Positions 13,274-37,785 are shown, numbered from the stretch's first letter. The stretch is DNA of 64,000 nucleotides from Nitrosopumilus sp. (GCA_965205675.1 OZ242186.1:960001-1024000), one strand, 5' to 3'. The notes: generated by a model from the sequence alone, not told the origin. Numbers and translations are program-made.

Positions 13274-13288
13274 TGAGGATGTTTATTC

Positions 13289-14253: not shown

Positions 14254-15643
14254 GTAACTGTCTAGAGTTTTGAAGTAAAATCTCCAAGATATTCTAAAGA
14301 ATAATCATGAAAGTTTAATCCTCGTAATCTGCATGTCTCCTTTATACTCATCAGTATCTTATGAGAATCAGCACCATGAATGGTTCTATGACCGTTTGTA
14401 ATTTTACGAATTATCACATTTGGTCTGATTGCCCTCTCTGCTGTGTTATTGTGTGAATCAGTTCCAGTAATTAGGAATGTAAAAAGCATTTCTCTCTCAC
14501 GTTTCAATCTTTTTACAAACCTGATACAGTTTTTCTCTGTGTATTTTTTTGATATGATGTGATTAATTCTCCTTTCAAGATTCTTTTTTGCATGGATTCT
14601 TTCTGATTCTGATTTTATTTTTGCCACACCATGAGAGTCATAAATTATTTTCTTGAGATTCTTGGCAAATGGTGCAAATTCTGGTCCGGGATTCTTGTGA
14701 TTAATGGTATCATTAACCTCTCTGAGATAATGGATGTGACATTTCTGGTGAGTGCTTCCAACATGGTTCCATGCAGGGTACGAATCACTTGTAATGTTGC
14801 CATCATATCCCTTGAGAATTCTCTTGGGAACATCCATTGAACGTGATTTGTCAATCTCGTAAATTACAGTCCATTTACTCACAAATGCCCACAACCAGTG
14901 GTTCTGGCCATCTACCCTCCAACTTGTCTCATCACCATGTATGTTTAGATCTTCTTTTAACTCCACAATCATTGTATCATATCTGCTCCCAAATGCTTTT
15001 GATACTATTGATACTGCATGATTAATTGCAGATTCTGTAATGTGCAGTGAGAAGAGCATCTGCAAAAGATGAGATATTTTACCATACGATAATCCGATAG
15101 TTTTCAGTGATATGATTAGCACCATGAGCCTAATCCCAAATCTCTCATTGGGTAGCGCAGTGTGAATGTTACCCGAGATTTGTTTTTTGCAGTTTGTGCA
15201 GTATCGTCTAACTATCGTATATTTTGTCACAACTGCTTTTGCAGGAATGATGTCTTCTACTATTCTGGTGTATGAATCAGTTGGTTCTGAGAGTGATTTG
15301 CCACATGTGTTGCACTCTTTTTGGTCAACTGTAATGGCATCATCAATGTGTGCCCGTCTGCTTCTGCTTTTTCTAGGATGTCTTGATGTTTTCTTCTTTT
15401 TTGCAGTTTCAGTCTTGTTTGGTTTTGCTTTGATATTTCTTGCAACAAGTGTAGACACTGTTTGTTTTAGTTCTGCAATTTCTCTGTGTAACTGACGGTT
15501 TTCTTGCTCCAACGAGTGACATCTGTTACGATAATATTCCAGCTCATCATATACTGACAATTGTATATTGTAATTTGTCACTGATCAGAAAAGATATAGA
15601 TAAAAAATATTAAAGAAAGTACTTCAAAACTCTAGACAGTTAC
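14254..15643 (-). mobile_element. IS66-family element (copy 2), no target duplication
   Basis: TIR GTAACTGTCTAGAGTTTTGAAGTA at both ends; flanks AACAGATG and TATTTTTG do not match. Confidence 0.95.
14262..15581 (-). CDS. IS66 transposase (439-aa variant)
   Basis: Coiled coil, CxxC zinc finger, HGDETSW, NNTAERAIR. Confidence 0.95.
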   Translation of the reverse strand: MTNYNIQLSVYDELEYYRNRCHSLEQENRQLHREIAELKQTVSTLVARNIKAKPNKTETAKKKKTSRHPRKSRSRRAHIDDAITVDQKECNTCGKSLSEPTDSYTRIVEDIIPAKAVVTKYTIVRRYCTNCKKQISGNIHTALPNERFGIRLMVLIISLKTIGLSYGKISHLLQMLFSLHITESAINHAVSIVSKAFGSRYDTMIVELKEDLNIHGDETSWRVDGQNHWLWAFVSKWTVIYEIDKSRSMDVPKRILKGYDGNITSDSYPAWNHVGSTHQKCHIHYLREVNDTINHKNPGPEFAPFAKNLKKIIYDSHGVAKIKSESERIHAKKNLERRINHIISKKYTEKNCIRFVKRLKREREMLFTFLITGTDSHNNTAERAIRPNVIIRKITNGHRTIHGADSHKILMSIKETCRLRGLNFHDYSLEYLGDFTSKL

Positions 15644-16726
15644 TATTTTTGTTATTTCTAAAATAATGAATAATTATCTTTACAAAGAAATATTTGAGAA
15701 TTTCAATTGATATTATTGGTTTGTGATTTTGTACATTAGTTTCTTCTGAGATAATCAAATTAGCAATTATCCATGCATTGTACAAAATCAATGAATAGTA
15801 AAAATACAACAATCTTATGGATTGGTTTGAACTGGTGGTTTTTGGTCTGAACCTTCCCACACATGCATAGCCTGTTTCAATCCCCCAACGTTTCTTGTAA
15901 TCAGTTGGAATGTTTTGTATGTTATATGATATTTCTTTTGGTGAAACGTTTGTTGCAAACACAACATACTGATCAATAATATCTGATTTTTTTCTTGCAT
16001 TTTTGTTTGGTAGAATAACTAGATTAAATGATTCTACATGTCCTGATGATGATTTTATTGTGTATGGCGAGATTGACTTTCTATCTCCATTAACGTATTG
16101 TACAATTGCATCTTTGATTCGAGAATTCTTTTTTGCAGGCATTAGAAATTTCAGATTCTTTTGTTTTATTTCTGAAATTGTTCCAGCTGTGAAAAACTCC
16201 CTATCCACTAGCAATAGTTTAATCTTGATTCCATTATTGATGCCATCAGAGAGTAATTTACGCACAAAATCGGCATTTGATTTGTTGTCATACAAAGGAT
16301 AACAACCTAATTGAGCCCTGATTCTTTTTTCAACGCACTGCATGGTGCAGTAACTCTCAAAATGAGTAGTACTGTTTTTTGATTTTGATTTTATTAAAGA
16401 ATGGTTTGGCAATTTGTCATATCTTGGGATTAGATGTTTGTCAATTGCTACAGTAACTGGTTGTTCCAATACTCCCAGTTCTCGTAATTTTGATACTGTA
16501 CTATCTAGTGACTGATGTAATTGAATTTGCATTGTTTTTTGTGATATTTTTGATATGATTTTTCTCAACCATGAAGAGAAGCATTATCTGATTCCATTGC
16601 CAGTCTCTTTAATCCAGATTCAGAATATGAATTTCCCAAACACAATGACATGACAGAATTGTGTGCATCTGCATTGTGGAACCGTGAGTTATTTTTACTA
16701 GAGCATGGAAACAACAAGATATTGTA

Positions 16727-17824
16727 TACTTCCTAACATAAGTTCGTCAACCATCCTCTCGTTGCATATACTTGAGAATGTCTAAATTGAATCGTCTGGT
16801 TCTGTAATATTTGGAGATGTTATTTTTCAGATTACTTAGAGATGGTTGATACTGTGACACCAACAAATTGTATTTTCCTTGCTTCCATACTTCCTCAACT
16901 GCATTGAACTGTGGTGAGCCTTTTGGAAACCAATTCAATAGAACATCATCTGCATTCTCATCAAGATATTTTTGCACTAGTTTTGATCTGTGTTGTGGTG
17001 CTCGGTCTACATAGACTAGAATCTTGCCAAACTTTCTGTGCAATTCCTTTAGATAATCCAAAAAACAGTACTGATCAAATTTTTCATATTGTCTGAATAA
17101 TTGCCTGCCGTCATGAGTCAGTGCACCAAAAATGATTGTTTTTTGATGTGACCCGTTTACTAGAATAATTGGACGGGTTCCTTTCTTTACCCACATCTTT
17201 TTTCTAAATATCGCATCAGCAGTAAAGATGGACTCATCTTGTGCAAGAACTGTAAAGCCTTTTGCTATTTTTGAGGCTATTTGTTCTTTGGAGTTTTTTT
17301 AAACCAGAGTTTTTCCTCAACACTAGCTGAATTTACAAATCTCTTTGCTGCAACCTTTGGAACAAATCCCCATTTGTGTAATAATCTGTACACATGAACC
17401 TCATGATATTTTACACCTGATTTTTGATAAATCAGATTCATCACTTGCTTTGCACTCCAGCCGGATTGTTTTTCTGCAATTTGTAGTTGAATGCTGACTA
17501 GTTTCTTTTTTGGTATACTAGTTGGTCTGCCAGTTCTAGGCAAGTCTTGCAGTCCTGCAATTCCATATTCTGCAAATCTATCTAACCATTTGTATGCCCA
17601 TGAACGTACACGTCCAAGATTCTTTGCAACATGTGATGCAATTTGGTTCTCAAGTAATACTCGCTTTATCAAAAATAGCCTTTCTTTTACCTTGACGTTC
17701 TTTTCATCTTTGTATGCTTGAATTAATTTTTGATTATTCATGGTTTGATGTGTAATGTTTTGATCAATATGGCATTTGGTAAAATAAATCAGATCAATAG
17801 ATCATAAAATTTTGTTAGAGAGTA
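16727..17824 (-). mobile_element. IS630-family element type B, nested in ISH3-like element
   Basis: TIR TACTTCCTAACA / TGTTAGAGAGTA with TA duplication; excision restores the sequence of the ISH3 copy near 29400. Confidence 0.92.
16747..17741 (-). CDS. IS630 transposase (two ORFs, probable -1 frameshift)
   Basis: orfA HTH (LPRTGRP); downstream frame QDES, DRAPQH, PKGSPQFNAVE; slippery TTTAAAAAAAC near 17294-17304 (minus strand). Confidence 0.88.
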
Positions 17825-18010
17825 TACATTATTTTAGTGATAATCTCAAATGCTTTAGATAGTATCACGCCTTGGTGTGTCATGGTATCAAATGAAGTAC
17901 AATGCATATCTGATGGAGTGACATACTTCCATCAAGCTTTTTCTATCTGAATAGATTGATTGAATAATTGATAGTTTTTGATCTAAATTGAGTTACTTTC
18001 CCATCTACTG

Positions 18011-18028
18011 AATTACGCAAGATGTCTA
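18011..18028. repeat. Solo terminal repeat of the IS5/ISL2-like family
   Basis: AATTACGCAAGATGTCTA matches ends at 33180-33197, 47885, 48009-48026 and 54725. Confidence 0.7.
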
Positions 18029-18176
18029 TAGATTCGGGCATTAAAAGGAATAAAAAAATTACGAACAAGAAAAAACAGGCAAGAAAAATGAGATTTTAAT
18101 CTAGACTAAAAAAATAGAGTAAAGGTCAGATTTTTGTAAATTCGGTATGGAAATAAGAATTATTTTTATATTCAAT

Positions 18177-18443
18177 ATGGATTGGGTTGAAACATTATTG
18201 CAAAAATCATGTGATAGAACACTTACAAAAAGCGAAGTTTTGCACAGTCTTTTTCACATGATAGAAGTAAATGAAGGTGTACTAAATCACATTAAAACAA
18301 ACAAAACAGATTTTGGTCCAGAACTAGAAGAATTAAAACAAACCGAAATCAGAGACTTGAATTTTCATTTGAAATACTATAGAAGTTTAGTAAATTATAT
18401 TAATTTAGTACCAAAAAATAAGATTGTTGAACATAGAACATGA
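18177..18443 (+). CDS. Hypothetical protein
   Basis: 88-aa helical ORF, no motif recognised. Confidence 0.6.
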   Translation: MDWVETLLQKSCDRTLTKSEVLHSLFHMIEVNEGVLNHIKTNKTDFGPELEELKQTEIRDLNFHLKYYRSLVNYINLVPKNKIVEHRT

Positions 18444-18461
18444 TCATCAATTATAACATAA

Positions 18462-19010
18462 TTACGATTGTAGTGATTTAAAAAGAGAATCATATTTAGA
18501 TTGCTCTTTAATATTTTGACCATAATTAGTCTCAATTTGATAGTTTGAGGATTTTTCATCAAAAAGTTTTTGTAATTTTTCTACTTCTTTATGAATCATT
18601 TTTCCAGAATCTTCTTTGGCAAATTGTTTACGTTGATCTTCATTCTGACCTCGGGTTGGAAAAGATTTATTGTAAAATTTTTGTTGCAAATAAGATATAT
18701 TTTTACGTTTTATTAGCTCGGCTAGATCAAAATGTCCTTGCTCATGATTAAGCAAAGAATCATTGGCCTCAGATGTTCGTACCCAAGAAAGCAATGGATG
18801 AAATTCTACAAAAAGAGAAATATCTTCAATCAAGAAAACAATTTGTTCATTAACTCTATCTGAATTCACAGTCCAAGTAAAACTATATTTGATGATGCTG
18901 TGGCTGTCTTCAAATACAGCAGGGTTGAATTCTGCTTGAAAGTCACTCCATTTAAGAAAAATACCAGACCTCCATTCCAAGAGGGTTTTTTTACTCATAA
19001 CAGATAGCAT
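18462..19010 (-). CDS. DUF922-family putative zinc metalloprotease
   Basis: LKWSDFQ...SWV...LLNHEQGHFDLAEL...ETNYG. Confidence 0.8.
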   Translation of the reverse strand: MLSVMSKKTLLEWRSGIFLKWSDFQAEFNPAVFEDSHSIIKYSFTWTVNSDRVNEQIVFLIEDISLFVEFHPLLSWVRTSEANDSLLNHEQGHFDLAELIKRKNISYLQQKFYNKSFPTRGQNEDQRKQFAKEDSGKMIHKEVEKLQKLFDEKSSNYQIETNYGQNIKEQSKYDSLFKSLQS

Positions 19011-19378
19011 TTTTACGATAATAAAATTATTTTTTATTTTTACTAATTAACATGAGACATGGGCATAATTAATTCTAATTTTTGAGTTAATTCTCAAATT
19101 ATTCAAATCAAAAAAGCTAAAGGTCTTATCATGTTTTGTTCATTGGAATGTCAAAACAAATGAAAATCCCTAGGCAAGATTCTATCAGGATCATTTCTTA
19201 TTGGTGTGTTATATTTGGTGGGGATGTTGTCTTTGCATGAGAAAGTATTCAGAGCCTACAGGCATAATTCACAGCAAAACCACTTGTGAACGTGACAATT
19301 TGTTTTCTTTGGACTGGCAGTATTACTGTTACAGTTTGGACAAAAGTTAATTGCCTTTTCAGATCTTTTTCCTGAATA

Positions 19379-20474
19379 TACCCCAGATCATAAGTCTTTT
19401 CAATTTACTGTTCTTGCAAAATACTGATACATATTCAAATTAAATTTGTGGGTTCTAAAATATTCCATAACTGTATGCCTCATTTCATGAATAGATTCAT
19501 AAAATTCTGATTCAACATTAACATGTTTGCACTGTCTCCAAATCTCTTCAATCATACTCAAATGCGGAGAACCTCTTGGAAGATATGCCAGTTCAACATC
19601 TTCGTTTTTACGCAGATATTCTTTTACATCATTAGCTTTGTGTTGTGACGCTCTATCGACGATAACAAATATTTTCCCGAATTTTTTACGAGCTGCCTCC
19701 AAATAATCCATAAATGCAATGGAGTTAAATTTTTCATACGATCTAAAAAAACTTTGATTATCATCAGTCATCATTCCATAAACCAAAAATCTTTGGTGCG
19801 ATCCTCTCCAACGTACAATCATTCGTTGGTGTACATCTGTCCAGTATTTTTTACCAAGACGTACATCGTCTACAAATACAGACTCGTCTTGGATGAATAC
19901 TATAAAACCTTTCTTTTTTGCCTTTTTTATGCGTGAAATGATGCGGTTTTTCCACTTGCGGCATGTATCCTTGGATGCTGCTCGCACATGTAGTTTTTGT
20001 GGAACCTTTGGTTTTAGATTCCATTTGTGCATCAAACGACGCACGTGAGTGATATGATATGTAATGCGTGTTCTGTAAAATATGAATTGTATCAGTTTTT
20101 TTGGAGTCATTCCATCTGAAATTCTCTTAAATGTACGCTCTATTTTTTGTAATTTTTTGTGTGCGATTAATGGCGGACGGCCAGAACGAGGGAGGTCCTC
20201 CAGACCCTCCAATCCATATTTTTCAAATGAATCAAGGCAGTTCCTTACAGAATTGTATGTACAAAATATTTGGCTTGCAGTTTCAGCAATTGTAGATTTG
20301 TTGATCTTAATTATACACATTGCATGCAGTCTTTCCTTTTTCTTACCGTACTTTTCTTTTTTGTAGGCCTGGAGTAACTCGTCATTTGTGATGTCCATGA
20401 AATTATTTCTAACTACTGATCAAAAAGTATTGCTATTTGTTTTGAAAAATTGCAAAGAATTATGCTCCGAGGTA
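19379..20474 (-). mobile_element. IS630-family element type C (copy 1)
   Basis: TIR TACCCCAGATCATAAG / ATTATGCTCCGAGGTA, TA on both sides; the two flanks belong to different genes (adjacent deletion inferred). Confidence 0.93.
19400..20398 (-). CDS. IS630 transposase, single ORF (332 aa)
   Basis: PRSGRPP, IQDESVF, VDRASQH, LPRGSPHLSMIE. Confidence 0.92.
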   Translation of the reverse strand: MDITNDELLQAYKKEKYGKKKERLHAMCIIKINKSTIAETASQIFCTYNSVRNCLDSFEKYGLEGLEDLPRSGRPPLIAHKKLQKIERTFKRISDGMTPKKLIQFIFYRTRITYHITHVRRLMHKWNLKPKVPQKLHVRAASKDTCRKWKNRIISRIKKAKKKGFIVFIQDESVFVDDVRLGKKYWTDVHQRMIVRWRGSHQRFLVYGMMTDDNQSFFRSYEKFNSIAFMDYLEAARKKFGKIFVIVDRASQHKANDVKEYLRKNEDVELAYLPRGSPHLSMIEEIWRQCKHVNVESEFYESIHEMRHTVMEYFRTHKFNLNMYQYFARTVN

Positions 20475-21547
20475 TATGTACTGATATCAGTTGCAAATAT
20501 AGAGTCCAAAGTATCAGTAGAGCAAACAATAGGTAGGATACTGCGATTATCAAAACAAAAAGAAAAGAAAAACCAAGAATTAAACTGCTCTTATGTGTAT
20601 ACATCATCACGAATCTTTGAGGAATCAGCTAAAGCATTAGAGAAAGGATTACTACAAAACGGATACTCTAAAAAAGATTTCAAGCAATTAACTGAAAAAA
20701 TACAAAGCAGGGAAATCTACAAGAGAGCAATTACTGATAAGGATATAAAAATTCCATGTATTGGAATAAATGATAAAAAACTACGAAGAATAAACTTTCA
20801 TGATGATTTTTTGGGTTCTGACTTTACATTAAGCAAACAAAAACCTCCTGAGAAATATCTTCTATACTTTGATGAAAATAAAACAAAGAAAGTTGACATA
20901 GAATATGGAGATAAGTTGAGTAGTTCTGTGCAAACATCACTTGATGTTACATATCAAAACAAGGATTTTGATGAAACTCGCCTGTTAAATTGGCTTGATA
21001 AAAAAATAAAACGCATAGAATATTCTCAAACAGACAAAAGAGAATATTTAGCAAAAATCATTAATCATGCGACAAAAAAAGAAAATATCTCACTATCTGA
21101 ATTATCAATTAATTGCTACACTTTACGTAACATCATAAACAGACAGATTGACAAACTAGAGCAGACAAAAGCAGAAAAAACATTCCTACATCTTGAAGAA
21201 TCAAATAAACTGATAATGGATAAAATACAATATTCCCCAGAACAAACACTTGAGATTAGCAATGTTTCTGAGGAACCATTTAAACTGCATCTCTTTGAGC
21301 GGGCAGGAATAATGAATAGAGAAGAATTAAATCTTGCCTTGAAAATTGATGGACTAAAAAACATAAAGTGGTGGTATAGGAATATGGATAAAAATGATTT
21401 CTACATACAAGGATGGCAAAAATTCAGATTCAATCCTGATTTTATAATAAAGACTAAATCTGGTAAATATGTCATTACAGAGTACAAAGGGGAAAATTTA
21501 CTTAGCAATGATGATACAAAGTACAAGGAAAAACTAGGTAAAAAGTG

Positions 21548-21625
21548 TACACTGTTCAATCTTAGTGTCATTTCTCGATTTTCACCCGAGTGTTCAATCA
21601 GGGTGACGGGTGTTAAGTTAGGGTG
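21548..21625 (+). repeat. Left 78-bp TIR with three internal ~16-bp subrepeats
   Basis: Exact reverse complement of 25883-25960; subrepeats CTGTTCAATCTTAGTG, GTGTTCAATCAGGGTG, GTGTTAAGTTAGGGTG. Confidence 0.95.
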
Positions 21626-21628
21626 CTA

Positions 21629-21758
21629 TAGCGAGAAGCATATGTTCATGAACTATTTTCATGGTATTTCAGATCGTTTATTCGTATTTACCTAGGTAAA
21701 ATCATCTAATCTCTAGTTTTTTGATGATTTTTAGTTCACGAACTTTATCTTTTCGCTA
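21629..21758. mobile_element. 130-bp MITE (IS630-related), copy 1
   Basis: Imperfect TIR TAGCGAGAAG...GTTCATGAACTA / TAGTTCACGAAC...CTTTTCGCTA, TA duplication; homologous inverted copy at 58748-58876. Confidence 0.85.
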
Positions 21759-22024
21759 TAGTCATTAACTGTAAATTCAAACAGTCCTTTTTTACCCGTG
21801 ATTATTTTAAGTTCATCATCTTCTGTAAATGAATGCTTTTCATATAACTGGGTCAACATAATGCAATTTTTGTTATTTACTCTCATATTGTAAATTTTCC
21901 CCATGAATTTTACCTTAAAAATTTCATCTTTTGGTGGAAATTCTTCTCTAATTATTTTTGGTAATCCTACATACTTGTATTTAGCTTCACTTGCAGACAA
22001 GCTCTTTACAAAATTAACAACCAT
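21731..22024 (-). CDS. Small putative B3/EcoRII-N-like DNA-binding protein (stop codon hit by MITE)
   Basis: Start coupled to the REase stop (TAATG); FVKSLSASEAKYKYVGLP resembles the B3 pseudobarrel KxLtxSD motif; MITE removal restores FTVND*. Confidence 0.5.
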   Translation of the reverse strand: MVVNFVKSLSASEAKYKYVGLPKIIREEFPPKDEIFKVKFMGKIYNMRVNNKNCIMLTQLYEKHSFTEDDELKIITGKKGLFEFTVNDYSEKIKFVN

Positions 22025-22737
22025 TACCCCATCACCTTTTCTCTGTTTGAGAAACATAAATCAAGATTGTCTGGAAATACTCTAAACCCAGTTCCATGAT
22101 CATGAGGTCTACCATCTGGATATTGTCCAATTCTTATGTCAACTAGAATTTTACCTTCTTTGAGTAATTTTATAAAATTATCAAAATCAAATCCGTTCAT
22201 CAGCCATGCCTCATTGTAATGAAATTCTTCATTTTTGCCCCTACCTTTAGAATCAGCTTTGACATACAAAAGGTTCTGTGGATATTTGCGATTAAATTGA
22301 GTTTCAAGTTCTTGTTTTTCCCAATATGGGGTTTCCATGTCGCCATAATCACAATGATCAATTTCTATTCTGGAATCATTGATAGTTAGAATAAATCCAT
22401 CATTTCCGTAAAGAGTATTTCTTGAAACTGCATCAAAGGTTGTATGTAATTTCTTTCTACCATTATCTGCTTTACGACCAAACCGTTCAAGCAGTTTGAC
22501 ATTTATTTTTTCAGGCATTGGTGCTTTTGTGAATAGTGTAAGCATACTTGGCGAACCTTTTCTTGCTGATTTTAATTCTGTAAAATGTCCGTTAGGTCCT
22601 GGAATATTATTTTCCTCAATGCCCAACAAATCCTCTAATGTTTTGCCAATACCTGTGTTTCCAGATCTATGGGTTGTTACAAATCCTGATTCACTGACTT
22701 TTTTTAGATCTACAAGAAGCTCATCATATCTTTTCAC
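22024..22737 (-). CDS. MvaI/BcnI-family type II restriction endonuclease
   Basis: HRSGNTGIGKTLEDLLGIEENN, ELKSAR, LTLFTKAP, DHGTGFR; 237 aa. Confidence 0.92.
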   Translation of the reverse strand: MKRYDELLVDLKKVSESGFVTTHRSGNTGIGKTLEDLLGIEENNIPGPNGHFTELKSARKGSPSMLTLFTKAPMPEKINVKLLERFGRKADNGRKKLHTTFDAVSRNTLYGNDGFILTINDSRIEIDHCDYGDMETPYWEKQELETQFNRKYPQNLLYVKADSKGRGKNEEFHYNEAWLMNGFDFDNFIKLLKEGKILVDIRIGQYPDGRPHDHGTGFRVFPDNLDLCFSNREKVMG

Positions 22738-22745
22738 AAATCAAC

Positions 22746-24065
22746 TCAATATTTCATAATAATAACACTTTCTCGGGTCATGGTTTTGCCTGTCTCTTTT
22801 GTGATGTTCTCAGGTGCATTCTTTGAGGGCATTGATTTGTTTGGTATGTTTCTCTGAATTATCTTATCCACCTTGAACCCATATTTCATCCCTAATTCAA
22901 TGGTGATTAAGTCAGTTGGTATGACTACACGCCTTACTGTCCTGTTTGCCACAACAAAACAGCAATAACTTTTCTTAGGAACTAGATTCTGAGATATTTC
23001 ATCTAGACACTTGTCTAAATCATAAAAGAATGAATATACTGCCTCTGTTCTGCATGGTTTCTTATTTTTTGTCATTGCAATGTCATTTTTTCTAACTTTA
23101 TCTAGTGTCGTGTTTAGTATTCCAGAACCCAAATCTCCACCTATTCTGTATTGACCACCCAAGCCAACAGAATCAACAGTTAGTGCTTTTTCTTCTTGTA
23201 ATTCTAACCAAAGGCTAGAATGCTTTGAGAATTGACCATAAGCTACAGTGGTTCCATGATCACCATAAGGCGGTGAGGTTACTACAAGATGAACTTTTTT
23301 GTCTTGTAGTATGTTGTTGTTAATTTTTTTAAAATTACCTGTAATGTCTCTTGAATCTCCCAACAATATGTGAGCTTTACCTTTAGGCATTGCATCAACC
23401 ATCTCAGTCATTTTGATTATGTTGTTTTCTGCAATCTGTTTGAACATATCCATTGGTTGTGGGTTAAATTCTATCTTGTCTGAATCTGAAATTCTATGAA
23501 TTTTCCAAGCACCGTTACGCTGATAGCTTGATTTCCTAACCGTCAAAGAGAAACATATTTTGAAAAAATCCCTTACGTCTTCATCACGAATCTTAAAGAC
23601 ATTGTGTTTTAGAGTAGTGAGTATTTTTATTGTATCTGGTTTGTACCAATTTTCAACATCTAGTTTGTTTGGAAGACATTCTAAATGATATTCTCGGTTA
23701 AGATAATCTCTAGCTGAATTTGAAAGTATTCTTGTCAGTGTTGGATTCAAGTCTTTGTGTATTGGAGTTGTTTTTACCTTTGAAAGTAATGTGGCAAAGG
23801 GGTTTATGTCAATTCCAATAGTTTGGTTTCCGTGCATCATTGCTTCAAGCAATACGCCACCTGAACCCATAAACGGGTCAAGAACAACATCTGTTTTATC
23901 TTTGGAATATTTTTCAATTACTTGTTTGGCAATTTCTGGATGCATCCTTGCGGGGTACAAATGCAAGGCATGAGTATATTTTTTGGTGCTTACATCTGCA
24001 AACGTCCATTCCATTTTTTGCAATTGTGATTTGTACAGAAATTCAGTATTTGTAATTTGTGCCAT
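22746..24065 (-). CDS. N4-cytosine DNA methyltransferase, alpha class (M.MvaI-like)
   Basis: THALHLYPARMHP, VLDPFMGSG (motif I) N-terminal to VTSPPY (motif IV). Confidence 0.9.
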   Translation of the reverse strand: MAQITNTEFLYKSQLQKMEWTFADVSTKKYTHALHLYPARMHPEIAKQVIEKYSKDKTDVVLDPFMGSGGVLLEAMMHGNQTIGIDINPFATLLSKVKTTPIHKDLNPTLTRILSNSARDYLNREYHLECLPNKLDVENWYKPDTIKILTTLKHNVFKIRDEDVRDFFKICFSLTVRKSSYQRNGAWKIHRISDSDKIEFNPQPMDMFKQIAENNIIKMTEMVDAMPKGKAHILLGDSRDITGNFKKINNNILQDKKVHLVVTSPPYGDHGTTVAYGQFSKHSSLWLELQEEKALTVDSVGLGGQYRIGGDLGSGILNTTLDKVRKNDIAMTKNKKPCRTEAVYSFFYDLDKCLDEISQNLVPKKSYCCFVVANRTVRRVVIPTDLITIELGMKYGFKVDKIIQRNIPNKSMPSKNAPENITKETGKTMTRESVIIMKY

Positions 24066-24072
24066 CAGTCGA

Positions 24073-24246
24073 TCACTTTTTTATCGGCTTGACATTGATT
24101 ATAAGATTACTTTTCTCAGCTTTAATCTCCCATTCCAACTGATCCTTTTCTTTTAGATCAAAATGGGTTATGATGCTTTGAGGTATTGTTGTTCTCAAGC
24201 TCATAGAAGTAGTGGTAGCTTTGTTAATCGATGTCTTTTCTCCCAT
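24073..24246 (-). CDS. AbrB/MazE-like DNA-binding protein
   Basis: SLRTTIPQSIITHFDLKEKDQLEW swapped-hairpin pattern; first gene of the R-M operon. Confidence 0.8.
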   Translation of the reverse strand: MGEKTSINKATTTSMSLRTTIPQSIITHFDLKEKDQLEWEIKAEKSNLIINVKPIKK

Positions 24247-24331
24247 AGGTAACAAGATAAGGCATTGTCTATTATAGTTACCTATTACCTATAACGTTAC
24301 CTTTATATCAATGGGTAACAGTATAGGTAAC
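24245..24331. promoter_or_regulatory. Divergent promoter with repeated GTTACCT/AGGTAAC operator-like boxes
   Basis: ATAGGTAAC 24245-24253, GTTACCTAT 24277-24285, GTTACCT 24296-24302, GGGTAAC 24313-24319, ATAGGTAAC 24323-24331 around TATA-like TTTATAT 24302-24308. Confidence 0.65.
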
Positions 24332-25666
24332 ATGAATAGAAAACAAAAAGCAAATCAAATATTCTCAAAAGCAAATAAGATTAGAAAAATTTCAAAGAAT
24401 CATTACGCTGTAGATTCTCAAAACTCAGACAAATCATACAATGTTAGAAAATTACCAAAATCGGATGTATGGACTTGTGAGTGCAAGGATTTTCATTTCA
24501 GATTACGAAAACTAGATGATAAACATTGTAAGCACATTAAATCATGTATCCTATTACAAGATAGTATAAACACAGAAAACAAAATAGAGCAAGTATCACA
24601 ACCCAAAGTTTGTCCTAAATGTCAATCATCATGTATTGTAAAAAATGGATTTAGAAAGCTAAAGAATGGAGGACAGAGACAAAAGCACAGGTGCAACCAA
24701 TGCAAGTACAGATTCATTTTAGGTGAAAATGGATTTTCCAAAGTTTCATCTGATCCTAAAATAATCTCTGAATCATTGAATCTGGTTATGAGTGGAATGT
24801 CATATCGTAACATTGCACGACACATTGAGACAGTACACCAAATCAAGATTAGTCATGTATCTGTGAATAACTGGATTAGTAAATACACACAACTAATCAA
24901 AGATTATGTTGATACTCTAAACCCTGAGTTGTCTGATGTGTGGAGCTTGGATGAAATGTATCTCAATGTCAAAAATACAAAAAAGACTGGAAAGGGATTT
25001 CATGATTGGTTATGGAGTATCATTGATCCTAAAACTAGATTTCTTATTGCTACAGAAGTATCAAAGAAAAGGGAAATTTCTGATGCAAGAAAGATTATTT
25101 CAAGTGGCAAGAAGATAATATCTAAAAATCCAAATTATGTATTAACTGACTGTCTAAATTCATATCAAGAAGCAATAAGAAAAGAGTTTGAAAATAAGAC
25201 TGCACATATCAAGACAAAGTCCCTCAAAGAAGGATTTGTGAACAGACCTATAGAACGGTATCATAATGAAATTAGAGAAAGACTCAAAGCTAGACGTGGA
25301 TTAGGCAATGATGAATCTGCACAGATGTTTTCAGAGTTGTTAAAGATAAATCATAACTTTGTCAAGCCACATCAAGGGTTAGATGGACAAACACCAGCTC
25401 AAGCTGCAAATATTGATCTAAATCTAGGTGATAACAAATATCTAGATTTGATAAAACTGTCTGGAACTAAAGTGAACTTTGTAAACAATTTAGGAAAGAG
25501 AATTAAAAAAGTTACAATAGTTAATGAGGGTGATTCCATTAAAGTTACTCCTACAGGATGGATTGATAAAAAAATATGGAGGGAGATAAACGATATTTTG
25601 AAACTTCATAAATTTAGTTGGTTATCAAATGGAAAAGATAGCTGTTGGCTGAAGATAATTTCCTGA
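24332..25666 (+). CDS. DDE transposase (IS6/IS240-like core) with N-terminal SWIM finger, zinc ribbon, HTH and extra C-terminal domain
   Basis: WTCECKDF...HCKH (SWIM); CPKC...CNQC; WSLDE, LTD, IERYHNEIRER, HNFVKPH; alternative start 24311. Confidence 0.88.
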   Translation: MNRKQKANQIFSKANKIRKISKNHYAVDSQNSDKSYNVRKLPKSDVWTCECKDFHFRLRKLDDKHCKHIKSCILLQDSINTENKIEQVSQPKVCPKCQSSCIVKNGFRKLKNGGQRQKHRCNQCKYRFILGENGFSKVSSDPKIISESLNLVMSGMSYRNIARHIETVHQIKISHVSVNNWISKYTQLIKDYVDTLNPELSDVWSLDEMYLNVKNTKKTGKGFHDWLWSIIDPKTRFLIATEVSKKREISDARKIISSGKKIISKNPNYVLTDCLNSYQEAIRKEFENKTAHIKTKSLKEGFVNRPIERYHNEIRERLKARRGLGNDESAQMFSELLKINHNFVKPHQGLDGQTPAQAANIDLNLGDNKYLDLIKLSGTKVNFVNNLGKRIKKVTIVNEGDSIKVTPTGWIDKKIWREINDILKLHKFSWLSNGKDSCWLKIIS

Positions 25667-25840
25667 TTTTCTCATTTCTTGCACTTTGTTAATTGCGTTT
25701 AGTGTATGATTTGTTATGACCTCAATGATTTCATTTTGAGAAACATCATAATCCATTTCATCATCTACAAACATGAATAATATTTCATCTAATTTTTCTT
25801 CATATTGGTTTTTAGTTTCTGTCTTCCTATTTTTTGACAT
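25625..25840 (-). CDS. Small hypothetical passenger protein of the transposon
   Basis: 71-aa ORF inside the right TIR, overlapping the transposase 3' end. Confidence 0.5.
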   Translation of the reverse strand: MSKNRKTETKNQYEEKLDEILFMFVDDEMDYDVSQNEIIEVITNHTLNAINKVQEMRKSGNYLQPTAIFSI

Positions 25841-25882
25841 ACTCTTGATGTATCTCAGTATCTAATATGTTGTAACTACGAT

Positions 25883-25960
25883 CACCCTAACTTAACACCC
25901 GTCACCCTGATTGAACACTCGGGTGAAAATCGAGAAATGACACTAAGATTGAACAGTGTA
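25883..25960 (-). repeat. Right 78-bp TIR
   Basis: Exact reverse complement of 21548-21625. Confidence 0.95.
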
Positions 25961-26102
25961 AAAAAGTGGGCAGAATTGGCAGGAGGTAATTATTTCTTTT
26001 ATCTCGTTAACAAAAACAGTGTCGAACAATTTATGACAGATATTGGAAAATTATGATTTGTAAATAGTTTAGTGCATTAATATCGTAATTGTTCTAATCC
26101 AT

Positions 26103-26189
26103 CACACCAATTTAACACTCATCACCCTAATTGAACACTCAGTTGAAAATCGTGAAATTGATAAAATGATACTAAGATTGAACAGTGGA
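26103..26189 (-). repeat. Diverged right TIR of an older related transposon
   Basis: CACACCAATTTAACACTCATCACCCTAATTGAACACTC...ACTAAGATTGAACAGTGGA is colinear with 25883-25960, with substitutions and a short insertion. Confidence 0.85.
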
Positions 26190-26204
26190 CTATTTTACAT
26201 AAAT

Positions 26205-26702
26205 TCATTGTATCAATTCAGGATATAATGAAATTGCACCTTTTGCAGTGATTATTCCCATCTCTGAGAGATAGTATTTTCTCCCTTTTCTAATTACATG
26301 TTCTGCTGATACCAATTCATCTAAAATTGCATTGGAATTCATATGTATTGCAGATGATGATGTAATTGCATGATTTTGTAATAGATACACAAGAACTTCT
26401 TCATTTCTATCAGGTGTAGGATAGTATGTTGTACGCATTAACATTTTTTGTACATGTATTGGCATTGATGTTATTCCATTTTTTGATTTCATCTGAATAT
26501 GAGTTGCCTGCTCCAAATGTGTTATGTTAATCTTTTTTGATTCTAATTGTTTTTGGCATGCTTCAATCAAAGCAAGTGCTTTTTGTACTGTTCTAAAATT
26601 TAATTCTGTTTTTTCACTTAATTTGTTTAATGTGTATGGCTTTCCATTTGCAATAGTTTTCATTATTTGTAGAGTTGCACTGGTAAGATCTGTTCTAGAC
26701 AT
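26205..26702 (-). CDS. Putative winged-helix DNA-binding protein
   Basis: YTLNKLSEKTELNFRTVQKAL HTH; C-term YYLSEMG wing. Confidence 0.65.
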   Translation of the reverse strand: MSRTDLTSATLQIMKTIANGKPYTLNKLSEKTELNFRTVQKALALIEACQKQLESKKINITHLEQATHIQMKSKNGITSMPIHVQKMLMRTTYYPTPDRNEEVLVYLLQNHAITSSSAIHMNSNAILDELVSAEHVIRKGRKYYLSEMGIITAKGAISLYPELIQ

Positions 26703-26755
26703 TATGTATAATTATACAATATCATTATATAATACTTGTTGTATAATTATACAGT

Positions 26756-27058
26756 ATGGATGACTATGAGATTGCGATATTATTGCAGGCATACAACAAG
26801 GGAATAATTGGAATGCGAAATTATGTTGCCATAGAAAAATTCTCAAAAATGATTAATTGGAAAAAGATATCCTCAGTATACAGAATAAAAAAAAGATTCA
26901 AGTCAGTTGTCCAAAAACTAGTCAAACATAAACTACTTTCAGATGATGGTAAAAGTATGGCAGTATTGTATCTTGACAAACTTGGGGTATCATACATTAT
27001 TGGTATGATTGAGAATGAACCTGAACACATATCAAAAATTTCATCAAAGATAGAGTGA
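26756..27058 (+). CDS. Small hypothetical protein, possible winged helix
   Basis: VQKLVKHKLL...LYLDKLG; divergent from the previous gene. Confidence 0.55.
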   Translation: MDDYEIAILLQAYNKGIIGMRNYVAIEKFSKMINWKKISSVYRIKKRFKSVVQKLVKHKLLSDDGKSMAVLYLDKLGVSYIIGMIENEPEHISKISSKIE

Positions 27059-28024
27059 GATTACAATTCAATATTTTATAAATTTAGATTTTGATAATAC
27101 AAATTTGATTCTTTAGATATTTCCTCACTGGTGCTGAGATTTTTATTTTGAATTTTTTCCAACACATCAACTCTTTTTTGAAAGTTTTCTCTGATGTTGC
27201 TAATACCTGACACACTGCTTACATCATTTAATTTTGTGCTTTTCTCTAATAATTCGTATGTATCAAGCTTCACACATAAATCAATACCATTACACAAAAA
27301 GATCTAAGATCAGCTAAATCATTCTACAATACATGTCAGAGTGTGGTCATGAGAAAATCATTTTACAATTACAAGAGGAGATACGACAACTCAAAGCAAT
27401 CATAGAGAAATTAGTAGAATCAAACAAAGATTTGCAAAAAAGATTATCATACTATGAAAATCCACACTCACCACCATCAAAAAATTCACTTGAATGGAGA
27501 AAACAGAAACAAGATGCAAAGAAAAACAGAGATTCTGATTCTGGCAAATCAAAACGTGGTGGCATACCAGGTCACAAGGGCACAACACAGAAATTCACCC
27601 CAACCAGTACCATACATCACAAATGTTTAGAATGTCCCAAATGTGGAAGTGAAGATATCCTTCAAATCAAGACTGCCAAAAGAATAATGGTTGAAATCCC
27701 TCCACCAACTCAATACATTGCAACTGAGCATGTCTTGTATCAATACAATTGTAAGAACAGCTCTGATAGTTTCAAGACAGATGGAAATCTTCCACCATGT
27801 GGATGCTTTGATGCTTCTGCAATACGTGAGGCAGTCTCATTATTCTCAAAGAGAATGCCATACGATACCATTAGAGTAACTCTTCAAGAAAGATATGGAT
27901 TGAAAATTAGTTGCACTACAGTACAATCTATTCTTCGCACTGGCAGTATTATGTTAGAACCATTGGAGTGGACTCCTGTTTTTAGTACCACTTTTTGCAT
28001 AATCTTACATACAGTCTGATTCAT

Positions 28025-28846
28025 TTATGTTTTCATCTCCCATAACTCCATGAATTCATCAGGAGTAAGGTATCCTAACGCTGAATGAATCCTGGAACCA
28101 TTGTAATCGATTCGTGCTTTCTCTAGAGCAACTTCGGCTTCCTGATAGTTTGCAAACTCGTACCTCCACAAGTATTCCTTCTTGAGTGTCTTGTGGAATG
28201 ATTCGACATGTCCGTTTTGTTCTGGCGTGTGGTGCCAGATGAATTCGTGTCTTATTCCAAGTAGAACAACTGCTTTTCTGAAATCTCGGCTGTTGTATTG
28301 CGAACCGTTGTCAGTTCTGAGAATCAGTTTTGTGCAATCAGGCTTTGCAGTAGCTACTGCATTAATGATGCTGTTAATTGCAGTGCTCTTTGGAGCTGCC
28401 ACATCAAATGAATGCCAAATCCATTTCCTGCTAAATGCATCAATCACGTTAAAGCAGTAGCACCATCTGTCAACCCCACACCAGACATATGTGATGTCTG
28501 TCTGCCACAACTGGTTTGGTGCATCAGGCTTGAATAATGTTCTGGCAGATTTGATGATGTCATTTTTGGTCTTTTTAGGCCCAATCCAGCCCAATTTGTG
28601 AAATATTCTTCTGATTTGTTTTCTGTTTACAGGCTTGTTCAGTTCCCTTGAGACTTGGGATGCCATGCGTCTGGTTCCATAAGTTGGCCTTTGTTTTCCA
28701 ATCTTTTGAACTACATCAGTTACTGCAGGATCTGTCTGAATCCTTCTTGGTGACTTTGAGTAATACCATTTGGATTTTGAGACTCCAATTAATAACAATG
28801 ACTTGTTCAAACTGATGTGTTTGTTCAGTTGATTCACTGCAGTCAT
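28025..28846 (-). CDS. IS3 transposase OrfB (integrase core)
   Basis: YGTRR, WQTDITY, RTDNGSQY, TPEQNGHVESFH, YN..RIHSALGYLTP. Confidence 0.93.
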   Translation of the reverse strand: MTAVNQLNKHISLNKSLLLIGVSKSKWYYSKSPRRIQTDPAVTDVVQKIGKQRPTYGTRRMASQVSRELNKPVNRKQIRRIFHKLGWIGPKKTKNDIIKSARTLFKPDAPNQLWQTDITYVWCGVDRWCYCFNVIDAFSRKWIWHSFDVAAPKSTAINSIINAVATAKPDCTKLILRTDNGSQYNSRDFRKAVVLLGIRHEFIWHHTPEQNGHVESFHKTLKKEYLWRYEFANYQEAEVALEKARIDYNGSRIHSALGYLTPDEFMELWEMKT

Positions 28847-29133
28847 CTTTTCTGGTTCTCCAACGTTTTTTTTAAAATGTCATTGGCAATTGTGATCTCG
28901 CCGATTAGTTTTTTGAGGGAATCATTTTCCTTTTGCAGATTCTTGCAGACATCTCCGTTTGGTGTGCCATTTAATGATGCCTTGCCACCTTCTACAAATC
29001 GTTCCCTCCATTGGTAGAATGTCTGTGGATGAATATTGTACTTTCTGCACAACTCTGCAGTTGCAATGTTTGTGTTTAGTGACTCTAAAACCCCTCTTGA
29101 CTTTTCTGCTGATGTGAATTTGCTCTTTACCAT
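28843..29133 (-). CDS. IS3 transposase OrfA
   Basis: HTH AELCRKYNIHPQTFYQWR plus leucine zipper; ATGA overlap with orfB. Confidence 0.92.
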   Translation of the reverse strand: MVKSKFTSAEKSRGVLESLNTNIATAELCRKYNIHPQTFYQWRERFVEGGKASLNGTPNGDVCKNLQKENDSLKKLIGEITIANDILKKTLENQKR

Positions 29134-30100
29134 GAGGGTAAGCCTCCCAAGTTATCTGAAAAGTGTATGTATGCTACTGGTCCTACTCTAGAGGGGACCA
29201 GACCACCATTGTACCACAGTAGATGGGAAAGTAACTCAATTTAGATCAAAAACTATCAATCACTCAATCAATCTATTCAGATAGAAAAAGCTTGATGGAA
29301 GTATGTCACTCCATCAAATATGCATTGTACTTCATTTGATACCATGACACACCAAGGCGTGATACTATCTAAAGCATTTGAGATTATCACTAAAATAATG
29401 TACAATATCTTGTTGTTTCCATGCTCTAGTAAAAATAACTCACGGTTCCACAATGCAGATGCACATAATTCTGTCATGTCATTGTGTTTGGGAAATTCAT
29501 ATTCTGAATCTGGATTAAAGAGACTGGCGATGGAATCAGATAATGCTTCTCCAACTGGTTTCATGGTTGAGAAAAATCATATCAAAAATATCACAAAAAA
29601 CAATGCAAATTCAATTACATCGTTCACTGGATAGTACAGTATCAAAATTACAAGAACTGGGAGTATTGGAACAACCAGTTACTGTAGCAATTGACAAACA
29701 TCTAATCCCAAGATATGACAAATTGCCAAACCATTCTTTAATAAAATCAAAATCTAAAAACAGTACTACTCATTTTGAGAGTTACTGCACCATGCAGTGC
29801 GTTGAAAAAAGAATCAGGGCTCAATTAGGTTGTTATCCTTTGTATGACAACAAATCAAATGCCGATTTTGTGCGTAAATTACTCTCTGATGGCATCAATA
29901 ATGGAATCAAGATTAAACTATTGCTAGTGGATAGGGAGTTTTTCACAGCTGGAACAATTTCAGAAATAAAACAAAAGAATCTGAAATTTCTAATGCCTGC
30001 ATAAAAGAATTCTCGAATCAAAGATGCAATTGTACAATACGTTAATGGAGATAGAAAGTCAATCTCGCCATACACAATAAAATCATCATCAGGACATGTA

Positions 30101-31190
30101 TACCTCGGAGCATAATTCTTTGCAATTTTTCAAAACAAATAGTAATACTTTTTGATCAGTAGTTAGAAATAATTTCATGGACATCACAAATGACGAGTTA
30201 CTCCAGGCCTACAAAAAAGAAAAGTACGGTAAGAAAAAGGAAAGACTGCATGCAATGTGTATAATTAAGATCAACAAATCTACAATTGCTGAAACTGCAA
30301 GCCAAATGTTTTGTACATACAATTCTGTAAGGAACTGCCTTGATTCATTTGAAAAATATGGATTGGGGGGTCTGGAGGACCTCCCTCGTTCTGGCCGTCC
30401 GCCATTAATTTCACACAAAAAATTACAAAAAATAGAGCGTACATTTAAGAGAATTTCAGATGGAATGACTTCAAAAAAACTGATACAATTCATATTTTAC
30501 AGAACACGCATTACATATCATATCACTCATGTGCGTCGTTTGATGCACAAATGGAATCTAAAACCAAAGGTTCCACAAAAGGTACATGTGCGAGCAGCAT
30601 CCAAGGATGTGTGCCGCAAGTGGAAAAACCGCATCATTTCACGCATAGAAAAGGCAAAAAAGAAAGGTTTTACAGTATTTATCCAAGACGAGTCTGTATT
30701 TGTAGACGATGTACGTCTTGGCAAAAAATACTGGACAGATGCACACCAACGAATGATTGTACGTTGGAGAGGATCACATCAAAGATTTTTGGTTTATGGA
30801 AATGATGATAATCAAAGTTTTTTTAGATCGTATGAAAAATTTAATTCAATTGCATTTATAGATTATTTGGAGGCAGCTCGTAGAAAATTTGGAAAAATAT
30901 TTGTTATCGTCGATAGAGCACCACAACACAAAGCTAATGATGTAAAAAAATATCTGCACAAAAACAAAGATGTCAAACTGGCATATCTTCTGAGAGGCTC
31001 CCCGCATTTGAGTATGATTGAAGAGATTTGGAGACAGTGCAAACATGTTAATGTTGAATCAGATTTTTATGAATCTATTCATGAAATGAGGCATACAGTT
31101 ATGGAATATTTTAGAACCCATAAATTTGATTTGAATATGTATCAGTATTTTGCAAGAACAGTGAATTGAAAAGACTTATGATCTGGGGTA
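30101..31190 (+). mobile_element. IS630-family element type C (copy 2)
   Basis: Same TIRs as 19379-20474, TA duplication; excision restores GHVESF of the ISH3 transposase. Confidence 0.93.
30177..31169 (+). CDS. IS630 transposase (330 aa)
   Basis: Close paralogue of 19400-20398. Confidence 0.9.
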   Translation: MDITNDELLQAYKKEKYGKKKERLHAMCIIKINKSTIAETASQMFCTYNSVRNCLDSFEKYGLGGLEDLPRSGRPPLISHKKLQKIERTFKRISDGMTSKKLIQFIFYRTRITYHITHVRRLMHKWNLKPKVPQKVHVRAASKDVCRKWKNRIISRIEKAKKKGFTVFIQDESVFVDDVRLGKKYWTDAHQRMIVRWRGSHQRFLVYGNDDNQSFFRSYEKFNSIAFIDYLEAARRKFGKIFVIVDRAPQHKANDVKKYLHKNKDVKLAYLLRGSPHLSMIEEIWRQCKHVNVESDFYESIHEMRHTVMEYFRTHKFDLNMYQYFARTVN

Positions 31191-31583
31191 TAGAATCATT
31201 TAATCTAGTTATTCTGCCAAACAAAAATGCAAGAAAAAAATCAGATATTATTGATCAGTATGTTGTGTTTGCAACAAATATTTCACCAAAAGAAATATCA
31301 TATAACATACAAAACATTCCAACTGACTACAAGAAACGTTGGGGGATTGAAACAGGCTATGCATGTGTGGGAAGGTTCAGACCAAAAACCACCAGTTCAA
31401 ACCAATCCATAAGATTGTTGTATTTCTACTATTCATTGATTTTGTACAATGCATGGATAATTGCTAATTTGATTATCTCAGAAGAAACTAATGTACAAAA
31501 TCACAAACCAATAATATCAATTGAAATTCTCAAATATTTCTTTGTAAAGATAATTATTCATTACTTTAGAAATAACAAAAATA

Positions 31584-32994: not shown

Positions 32995-33047
32995 CAAAAA
33001 TAATTATTTCCTAGAATGTGTAACTTGAGTTACTTTCCCATCTACTG

Positions 33048-33197
33048 GTTATTGAGAGTAGTGATAAAGGTGATTTGTATGGAATTGTCAACTTTAAGAC
33101 AAGATAGAAACAAGAGTTTGTTGTGGTATCTCAGAAATTATTTGAAATTAAATTCAATGAAAGATAAGATTTTGTTTGTAATTACGCAAGACGTCTA
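33048..33197 (+). mobile_element. Right-end remnant of an IS5/ISL2-like element
   Basis: GIVNFKTR* tail followed by TIR AATTACGCAAGACGTCTA. Confidence 0.65.
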
Positions 33198-35885: not shown

Positions 35886-35914
35886 GAATTTTTACTATTT
35901 TATTTCCTGCAAGT

Positions 35915-37781: not shown

Positions 37782-37785
37782 ATAT

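Follow-up and report, generated by a model that had tools for sequence, protein, structure and literature searches.

Genes and repeats at the locus

Here we describe a locus in Nitrosopumilus sp. at which a type II restriction-modification (R-M) transposon, termed Tn-A, sits inside the remnant of a type III restriction gene (Res), followed by a second, diverged transposon end (the old TIR, for terminal inverted repeat). The source is a single 2.01-Mb contig (GCA_965205675.1, OZ242186.1; genome G000), and the window, to which positions refer unless another sequence is named, is its 64,000-nt stretch from 960001 to 1024000. A sequence-only reading of the window had placed the interval of interest at 20475-26189 and had proposed that the type III system was itself the cargo of an older member of the same transposon family.

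Tn-A is a 4,413-bp unit at 21548-25960. Its two TIR arms are 78 nt long and 100% complementary in a repeat search, with the left, cargo-side arm at 21548-21625 (plus strand; E 2.3e-15 with a profile of family ends) and the right, transposase-side arm at 25883-25960 (minus strand). The left arm holds three direct repeats of the type TGTT(C/A)A(A/G)T. Immediately outside the arms are the two copies of an 8-bp target-site duplication, AAAAAGTG, at 21540-21547 and 25961-25968. The cargo end begins with an open reading frame (ORF) of 108 aa (21731-22057, minus strand) that has no family match, a decayed homologue of which lies at the equivalent place in a related element, L029 (tblastn, 5089-5347, 56-70% identity). 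Next on the minus strand are a type II restriction endonuclease of the MvaI/BcnI family (22024-22737; PF15515, E 9.3e-48, model positions 3-227 of 227) and, 9 nt upstream of it, a DNA methyltransferase of the N6/N4 class (22746-24065; PF01555, E 2e-14, with weak NCBIfam DNA-methylase matches), its presumed partner. Judged by domain content, a known-family endonuclease beside a DNA methylase, the cargo is a predicted type II R-M pair. On the plus strand, a 451-aa DDE transposase (24311-25666) reads towards the right TIR.

Three public sequencing runs from one study (X1, X2 and X3) contain the Res remnant, and their contigs were compared with the window over 18800-26700; uncovered regions and depth differences were not counted as evidence. 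In run X2, a 1,279-nt contig covers 20451-21539 and then resumes at 25961-26150. This joint omits 4,421 nt, and eight bases fit either side of it, giving an empty site with a single AAAAAGTG octamer. The same run also has a 4,221-nt contig of the Tn-A interior, so both forms coexist in the sampled population. Since the empty site is precise, the insertion is recent and polymorphic, and Tn-A is almost certainly the product of a recent, real transposition. Matching TIRs, a flanking duplication and an empty site make it a unit transposon, and from its sequence it appears to be a functional-looking one of an IS6-related family. The empty-site allele fits the ancestral allele and does not tell transposition mechanisms apart. 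A fold-back joint in run X3 (21547 to 25960, on opposite strands) was set aside as an assembler artefact of the kind expected from 78-nt inverted repeats.

The gene that Tn-A interrupts survives in two parts. The first, at 20477-21547 on the plus strand, encodes residues ~380-738 of ~766 and comprises helicase motif VI, a linker and a PD...ExK nuclease motif; it is 77% identical to P0001, one of the 766-aa ResIII helicase-nucleases, over 100% of the query. The second part, at 25969-26056 on the plus strand, supplies the last 28 codons and a stop (TGA, 26054-26056), and a search of the genome itself matched 25937-26053 to P0001 residues 728-766. Tn-A thus lies 29 codons from the end of the gene, counting the stop and the 28 sense codons that follow the junction Trp, close to the 30 codons of the sequence-only reading, whose picture of a type II R-M transposon inside a type III Res gene is borne out by the perfect TIRs, the 8-bp duplication and the Res frame on both sides. 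At an E-value of 0.001 or less there are 248 Res homologues, and the 120 listed among them span 635-794 aa, nearly all with PF04851. Across 24 Res homologues, P701, D702, E716, Y717 and K718 are invariant, and the motif stands in frame in the window upstream of Tn-A. A search of sequences in the PDB returned no relative of Res. In all four full-length relatives found with their surroundings (in G161, G474, G407 and G112, at 53, 51, 42 and 41% identity), the gene directly upstream and co-oriented is an N6/N4 methylase, Mod; this pairing identifies the interrupted gene as the probable Res subunit of a type III-like system. Mod itself is not in the window, where the upstream part is deleted.

What cuts the gene on its left is an IS630-like element of ~1.1 kb at 19377-20476 (minus strand; transposase at 19400-20398 with Pfam DDE_3 and helix-turn-helix (HTH) domains), present in at least 30 copies in the genome at 90-96% identity, with ends at 19377 and 20476-20480. 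Its end abuts Res at about codon 380. The helicase half of Res is lost except for motif VI (QxxGRxxR), at the very start of the remnant, and residues 1-379 left no trace anywhere in the genome. The start at 20475 given by the sequence-only reading falls within 2 nt of the remnant's edge, but this edge is the end of the IS630-like element and not the start of a gene. The empty-site contig begins at 20451, 26 nt inside the IS630-like end, so the junction between this element and Res is older than Tn-A. It follows that Res was already truncated when Tn-A arrived and that Tn-A did not kill a working gene. The idea that one R-M system replaced another here therefore needs this qualification.

The old TIR (26103-26189, minus strand) stands alone; it is diverged, yet retains the whole of a family end. 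It begins 46 nt after the Res stop and has its tip at 26189. Searches against the whole 2.0-Mb genome detected it at E 2.3e-14 (blastn) and E 2.2e-12 (nhmmer with the family-end profile). Its identity in the repeat search is 84% across 56 nt plus 83% across 36 nt, with a 9-nt insertion, and when aligned with 30 other ends it has the tip, middle and inner blocks all present and in order, although base 2 of the tip is mutated. The E-values and the three conserved blocks take the match far beyond chance and confirm the diverged TIR proposed at this distance past the Res stop. Because its tip points right, the element to which it belonged lay to the left, where Res is. The octamer beyond the tip, CTATTTTA (26190-26197), is presumably the right copy of that element's target duplication.

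The old end and its right flank also occur in genome G474 at 96% identity, there with a canonical tip, and the end is accordingly old and predates Tn-A. In G474 an IS5-like element cuts the same end at the equivalent of 26117, with unrelated DNA beyond, and high-depth contigs of runs X1 and X2 break at the same point. Over 26117-26620, the contigs of these two runs have word depths of ~600-1,650, against ~3-10 for unique parts of the window, and are ~3% divergent; this junction is also present in a far more abundant relative from the sample, whose break at 26117 is that of G474. Among 150 other genomes of the genus, 14 have the right flank (26190-27240). G036 lacks the old end and has on its left side a repeat and unmatched DNA rather than a clean empty site, and G021, G374, G410 and G014 match the flank only from ~26207 onward. 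None of these orthologous sites decides what the older element carried. To the right of the old TIR is a two-gene module (26205-27058) encoding a 165-aa protein with a weak HTH match and a 100-aa ORF. Ten of those 150 genomes have the module at 74-96% identity, in differing contexts, and four more have short partial matches; it may belong to a mobile or variable region.

The transposon family and its cargo

A second intact member of the family lies elsewhere in the same genome (L014; G000 1827041-1832921). It is 5.9 kb long and has the order TIR, Res, 82-aa ORF, Mod, transposase, TIR, with a Res of 731 aa (PF04851), a Mod of 486 aa (PF01555) and a transposase 80% identical to that of Tn-A. Its Res is only 28% identical to the window-type Res P0001. 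The sequences flanking L014 do not match as a duplication would (GTTAGCGT to the left, CAAATCTT to the right); the near-identical L021 element has CAAATCTT on both sides, and the left end of L014 was likely rearranged after insertion. A decayed third member in this genome carries a methylase and a 362-aa ORF.

Scanning species-representative genomes gave 31 loci with relatives of the transposase, all from Nitrosopumilus except one from Nitrosotalea, one on a 3.3-kb contig labelled Dehalococcoidia and three labelled only as archaeon or Woesearchaeota. The Dehalococcoidia-labelled contig (L026) encodes a transposase 81% identical to that of Tn-A beside a family end, and reflects either a binning error or transfer across domains. 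TIR pairs of 29-96 nt were detected by blastn in 14 of the 31 loci; with L022 a second copy of L021 and L027 a second copy of L019, these represent 12 distinct elements. Clear 8-bp duplications flank L018, L021, L032 and L041. The paired elements measure 1.8-8.0 kb, and the cargo-bearing ones 3.5-8.0 kb with two to six passenger ORFs. In the 401 sampled genomes of the archaeal family, the transposase lineage is present in 122 at E ≤ 1e-40, a count that includes seven unpublished genomes and in which roughly 30 of the 122 are close relatives. No viral contigs carrying the transposase were found.

Pfam assignments of the cargo show a wide range of predicted R-M systems. Type III Mod and Res genes are carried by L021/L022 and L034, a HaeIII endonuclease with a D12 methylase by L018 (and, decayed, by L032), type I-like methylase and specificity subunits (M+S) by L019/L027, an SNF2 helicase with an Mrr nuclease and an MT-A70 methylase by L028, a methylase with an ORF of no known family by L029, and a GmrSD-HNH protein with an EcoRI methylase by L041, from a Nitrosotalea metagenome-assembled genome. 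L020 holds two unknown ORFs; L023 has non-R-M cargo, an HYR/fn3 protein with an inserted insertion sequence (IS), and its end pairing is doubtful; L031 and L040 are short derivatives without cargo. Five loci with no TIR pair were also examined: L025 encodes an HNH nuclease and a D12 methylase, L033 an Eco57I-type methylase and a PLD nuclease, and in the others the cargo is unknown and includes a MazE-like ORF. The tally sets aside 14 of the 31 loci: the duplicates L022 and L027, and L026, L035, L036, L038, L039 and L042-L048, which lack a TIR pair. Ten of the 14 TIR-paired relatives examined combine a DNA methylase with nuclease or helicase partners, as do two of the five unpaired loci (L025 and L033) and an element of a sister class described below. 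The family carries at least nine kinds of R-M cargo and is very probably dedicated mainly to such cargo, and the proposal that it repeatedly carries different R-M systems is thereby upheld. In L018 (9352-9717) and L029 (9346-9708), the interval from the transposase stop to the right TIR contains an oppositely oriented GIY-YIG nuclease ORF of ~120 aa; the corresponding position in Tn-A has only an unrelated 71-aa ORF.

The arrangement of these elements is regular. In all ten intact cargo-bearing members, every cargo gene reads from the transposase towards the distal TIR, and the last cargo stop falls -4 to 275 nt from the inner edge of that TIR. In all three type III members, Res is the TIR-adjacent gene and its stop is -4 to +5 nt from the inner edge. 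The elements also cluster. With the end profile, another end was found within 150 nt in seven of the 31 loci (L020, L024, L029, L031, L035, L036 and L040). L020 and L040, from one genome and with the same junction, have an outer end followed 18 nt on by the tip of a different inner end; L036 has three different ends stacked; in L024 one end abuts a truncated end; L035 has an exact tandem repeat of one end; and in L029 two ends flank a tRNA gene. In addition, the L034 type III element lies between sister-class ends, with more sister-class tips beside it. Three of the stacked or nested loci come from one genome, and the independent events are therefore fewer, at least five; the counts are raw. 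The insertion of Tn-A 135 nt inside the old end fits this pattern. Family members thus probably tend to land in or beside the ends of their relatives, in agreement with the idea that they can insert into one another.

The transposase has two zinc motifs, a CxC...CxH finger and a four-Cys ribbon, together with a DDE core of the IS240/IS6 type and a C-terminal extension of ~90 aa. D214, D280, E315 and R322, together with both zinc motifs, are invariant in a nine-sequence alignment that reaches down to ~31% identity, and the spacing suggests D214/D280/E315 as the candidate catalytic triad. The match to PF13610 (DDE_Tnp_IS240) scores 52.1 bits against a gathering cut-off of 27. The NCBIfam IS6 model (NF033587) scores 108.8 bits, below its cut-off of 125, and the IS1 model 72.1 bits, below its cut-off of 100. 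NCBI labels its relatives 'IS1/IS6 family transposase' or 'DDE-type integrase/transposase/recombinase', and a search of PDB sequences returned no relative.

A sister class, with transposases ~31-38% identical to that of Tn-A, is more widespread. An intact R-M transposon of this class lies 36 kb upstream of the window (G000 923390-926562, equivalent to L017 3390-6562). This 3.2-kb element has 49-nt perfect TIRs with GG tips, an 8-bp duplication (TGGTCTTC) and a transposase 31% identical to that of Tn-A, and it carries an N6/N4 methylase and a 229-aa ORF that read towards the far end. Two to three sister-class transposase genes lie within 8 kb in several genomes (for example G021:C1:1780562-1788388 and G275:C4:294238-301602), which suggests that this class is also clustered or in composite arrangements.

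Origin of the old TIR and of the Res remnant

In the window, Res is oriented towards the old TIR, lies on its inner side and ends 46 nt short of it. This is the orientation and spacing of the terminal cargo gene in intact members, and type III cargo is documented in the family. We therefore consider it moderately probable that Res was the cargo of an older family member, as the sequence-only reading proposed; that proposal keeps its support from layout, and the partner TIR, Mod and transposase were not found. In this account the older member would have inserted at the CTATTTTA target with the layout of its intact relatives (TIR, transposase, Mod, Res, TIR). The IS630-like element would then have entered Res near codon 380, and an associated deletion would have taken Res residues 1-379, Mod, the transposase and the far TIR, so that one IS630-linked deletion accounts for everything missing. 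Such a deletion at the IS630-like junction is the simplest account of how the rest of the older structure was removed. Tn-A would be a recent arrival, placed in the defunct Res tail 135 nt inward of the surviving end. The three direct repeats in each ~78-nt end may be transposase binding sites, and the outermost, within the tip TA-CACTGTTCAA, resembles the IS26 end. The transposase would make 8-bp staggered cuts in the target, as the duplication indicates, and movement would probably follow a copy-in route, by analogy with IS6 and IS26. From established R-M biology, a type II R-M passenger would be expected to defend the host and to make loss of the element costly.

Several observations weigh against Res as former cargo. 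The partner end was sought by blastn, short-word blastn, a pattern search, nhmmer with the end profile and a regular expression for CTATTTTA beside the tip, and neither a partner TIR nor a second CTATTTTA beside a family tip is present in the 2.01-Mb genome; since an IS630-associated deletion is expected to have removed both this TIR and the transposase, the result lowers the claim of a nested element without overturning it. There is no Mod or transposase remnant near Res, and the ORFs beyond the IS630-like element on its left resemble nothing in the family loci. This type of Res occurs in none of the 31 transposase loci, where only the ~26%-identical Res of L021, L022 and L034 matched. The old TIR belongs to a subgroup with CTTAGT tips, whose known members have type II cargo, and not to the subgroup of the type III carriers. 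Besides the old TIR, the genome has six solo ends (the single end of the decayed third copy, four in two duplicated pairs and one 26-nt tip fragment); solo ends are thus common in this genome, and one beside any given gene is not rare. The region is moreover an island of defence genes and IS elements, in which an R-M neighbour is likelier than average, and the chemistry of movement, copy-in or cut-and-paste, is inferred only.

Relatives of Res elsewhere point in the same direction. Searches of the genus (151 genomes) and the family (401 genomes) gave only relatives of up to 53% identity. The Res genes of G161, G474 and G112 (53, 51 and 41%) have Mod beside them and no family TIR or transposase within 8-10 kb; that of G407 (42%) has downstream only a 31%-identical transposase, in a different arrangement and with no family TIR. 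In a metagenome scan with a 24-sequence Res alignment as the query, none of 80 loci with Res homologues of up to 47% identity has a family end or transposase, and a scan of species-representative genomes with P0001 returned no Res relatives. The sequence-only reading had held that relatives free of a TIR and transposase would make the old TIR an unrelated solo insertion. Such relatives were found among homologues of up to 53% identity; the closest homologues, P0001, P0002 and P0003, are 77, 76 and 69% identical and are encoded on contigs of 2.04 Mb, 2.31 Mb and 7.3 kb, and the comparison of contexts covers the more distant ones.

Three other explanations of the old TIR can be set against cargo status for Res. 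The old TIR may be the leftover end of an unrelated insertion downstream of a resident, island-borne type III operon, its body since deleted and Res never cargo, which we regard as unlikely. The six other solo ends, the distant Res homologues free of family TIR and transposase (in G161, G474, G112 and the 80 metagenome loci), and the setting in an IS-dense defence island where deletions are evidently common would all suit this explanation, and the IS5-like cut in G474 shows that the interior beside this very end can be replaced. However, the orientation of the TIR requires that the lost body stood where Res now stands. The deletion would have had to begin just within a complete three-block end and finish 46 nt beyond an intact Res stop, with no IS or second end at the junction, and the result would have to match by coincidence the layout of all ten intact members and all three type III carriers. 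This is an extra and oddly placed deletion, where the cargo model needs only the one associated with the IS630-like element.

The two ends could also have arisen together, with the tandem of the Tn-A right TIR and the old TIR 142 nt further on as a by-product of an end-directed transposase reaction, either an IS26-like targeted reaction or a one-ended event, and no older element around Res. In L035 and L040, tandem ends of the same orientation are separated by 10-14 nt, and L020, L036 and L034 have stacks of two to three. IS26 is described (PMC8477213, PMC7986276) as using a targeted conservative reaction at a resident copy to make cointegrates, which lends this explanation a precedent. Against it, the clean 8-bp duplication and exact empty-site allele of Tn-A speak for ordinary transposition, the old end predates Tn-A through its shared right flank in G474, the old end is complete and has an octamer of its own beside it, and one-ended events are undocumented for the family; we judge it very improbable. 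Finally, the diverged version of the end is single-copy in the genome, as might be expected of a chance resemblance or of a regulatory or structural repeat unrelated to transposition. This last explanation is effectively refuted by the whole-genome E-values, by three conserved blocks and a tip motif in order and by the canonical tip of the G474 copy, and its probability is negligible. Overall, the general interpretation of a self-nesting family that ferries R-M systems is supported, and the specific claim of nested cargo is probable and unproven.

The surrounding island extends over 14-38 kb of the window and contains IS66-, IS4/5-, IS630-, IS3- and IS110-type transposases, many of them multi-copy genome-wide, with very dense IS content at 14262-20476 and 27249-38899. 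IS66-type transposases are at 14262-15581, 31646-32986, 34537-35877 and 52928-54247; IS630-like elements at 16747-17741 (frameshifted) and 30177-31169, in addition to that at the Res junction; an IS3-type element with ~15 genome copies at 27962-29205; an IS5-like element with ~20 genome copies from 29217; and IS110-type transposases within 36458-38899. The segments 16135-16726 and 17817-18010 form 96-99% inverted repeats with 29217-30000 and represent two IS5-like copies. The IS630-like element at 16747-17741 interrupts the left copy; the island's IS elements are therefore also nested in one another. Directly left of the IS630-like element that abuts Res, the place expected for the lost Res half, is a ~200-bp repeat (19044-19253) with many genome copies at 88-97% identity, possibly a miniature inverted-repeat transposable element. 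Upstream (4690-14026) is a large defence-like cluster of helicase, PLD nuclease and PD-(D/E)xK genes. It includes a Helicase_C-domain protein of 2,181 aa, a nuclease of the PLD family (11232-11777), an ORF of 499 aa that matches no family, and a PD-(D/E)xK protein (13289-14026). Five ORFs at or near the locus (18147-18443, 18462-19010, 25625-25840, 26205-26702 and 26756-27058) match nothing in the family loci and gave no informative hit to Pfam or NCBIfam.

Significance and comparison with known systems

The family itself is a more valuable result than the claim of nested cargo. Through it, R-M turnover in ammonia oxidisers of global importance gains a concrete vehicle, with one of its insertions caught as a polymorphism in a natural population, and the nested locus would preserve, on a small scale, a record of R-M systems that succeeded one another at the same site. 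A 2019 survey of thaumarchaeal mobile elements describes IS-like transposons as elements of one or two genes and reports passenger-carrying DNA transposons as undetected in archaea, Thaumarchaeota included (PMC6563490). In full-text literature we found no description of this family or of such cargo-bearing transposons in Thaumarchaeota; the supplementary IS lists of PMC6563490, which lay outside this search, may include copies as IS1 or IS6. It is possible, though doubtful, that these are the first cargo-carrying DDE unit transposons in Thaumarchaeota, an IS6-derived, R-M-moving lineage that lands preferentially in or just inside the ends of its relatives and swaps cargo through nesting together with deletion or alternative end use. 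If so, the family would have a built-in mechanism for shuffling R-M systems. In sponge symbionts (ammonia oxidisers), transposases and R-M systems are both reported to be enriched, without a link being drawn between them (PMC7848895); the family would supply a physical link for this joint enrichment in sponge-associated ammonia oxidisers, and one that is testable.

Its sequence features make the family a relative of IS6 but not a typical member. As outlined in PMC7986276, IS6 members measure ~0.7-0.9 kb and have 8-bp duplications, 15-20-bp inverted repeats, GG tips and cTGTt/caaa end motifs, and only one IS6-type element on record there has a passenger, the tIS ISDsp3. Like IS6 and IS26, the family described here has the DDE core, an 8-bp duplication and IS6 as its best NCBIfam match; its tip motif CACTGTTCAA (CACTGTT..CAA) fits the cTGTt/caaa end motifs (PMC7986276), and the sister class shares even the GG tips. 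In contrast, its elements are 3.5-8 kb long with ends of 55-96 nt that contain three internal repeats and have TA tips, and its 451-aa transposase has two N-terminal zinc fingers and a C-terminal extension. Where IS6 and IS26 are simple ISs of ~0.8 kb without passengers, here a whole R-M system is the cargo. A family of medical importance for moving resistance genes is thus extended by a variant with long, multi-site ends.

Defence cargo on transposons is already well known in bacteria, for example on Tn7-like elements (Benler et al. 2021, PMC8649781). Those and other defence-cargo transposons resemble the present family in having a variable cargo region with defence systems, R-M among them, and in carrying different cargo in close relatives. 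The archaeal family differs in having a single IS6-type DDE transposase, no TnsB/C/D-type machinery and no attachment-site targeting, and in its small size, with one system per element.

The interrupted gene can be compared with type III R-M systems of the EcoP15I kind. Its Res relatives similarly combine a ResIII SF2 helicase at the N-terminus with a PD...ExK nuclease at the C-terminus, directly downstream of a beta-class N6/N4 methylase gene, whereas the window keeps only residues ~380-766, split by Tn-A, and no Mod. Classical type III Res proteins are longer than the ~766-aa relatives. Bacterial R-M genes flanked by repeats or ISs have reportedly been treated as mobile units by Kobayashi and Furuta. 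In that work these units reportedly also behave selfishly, insert with target duplications and replace one another; the family described here differs in having a dedicated transposase and long TIRs, so that one vehicle serves at least nine kinds of R-M system.

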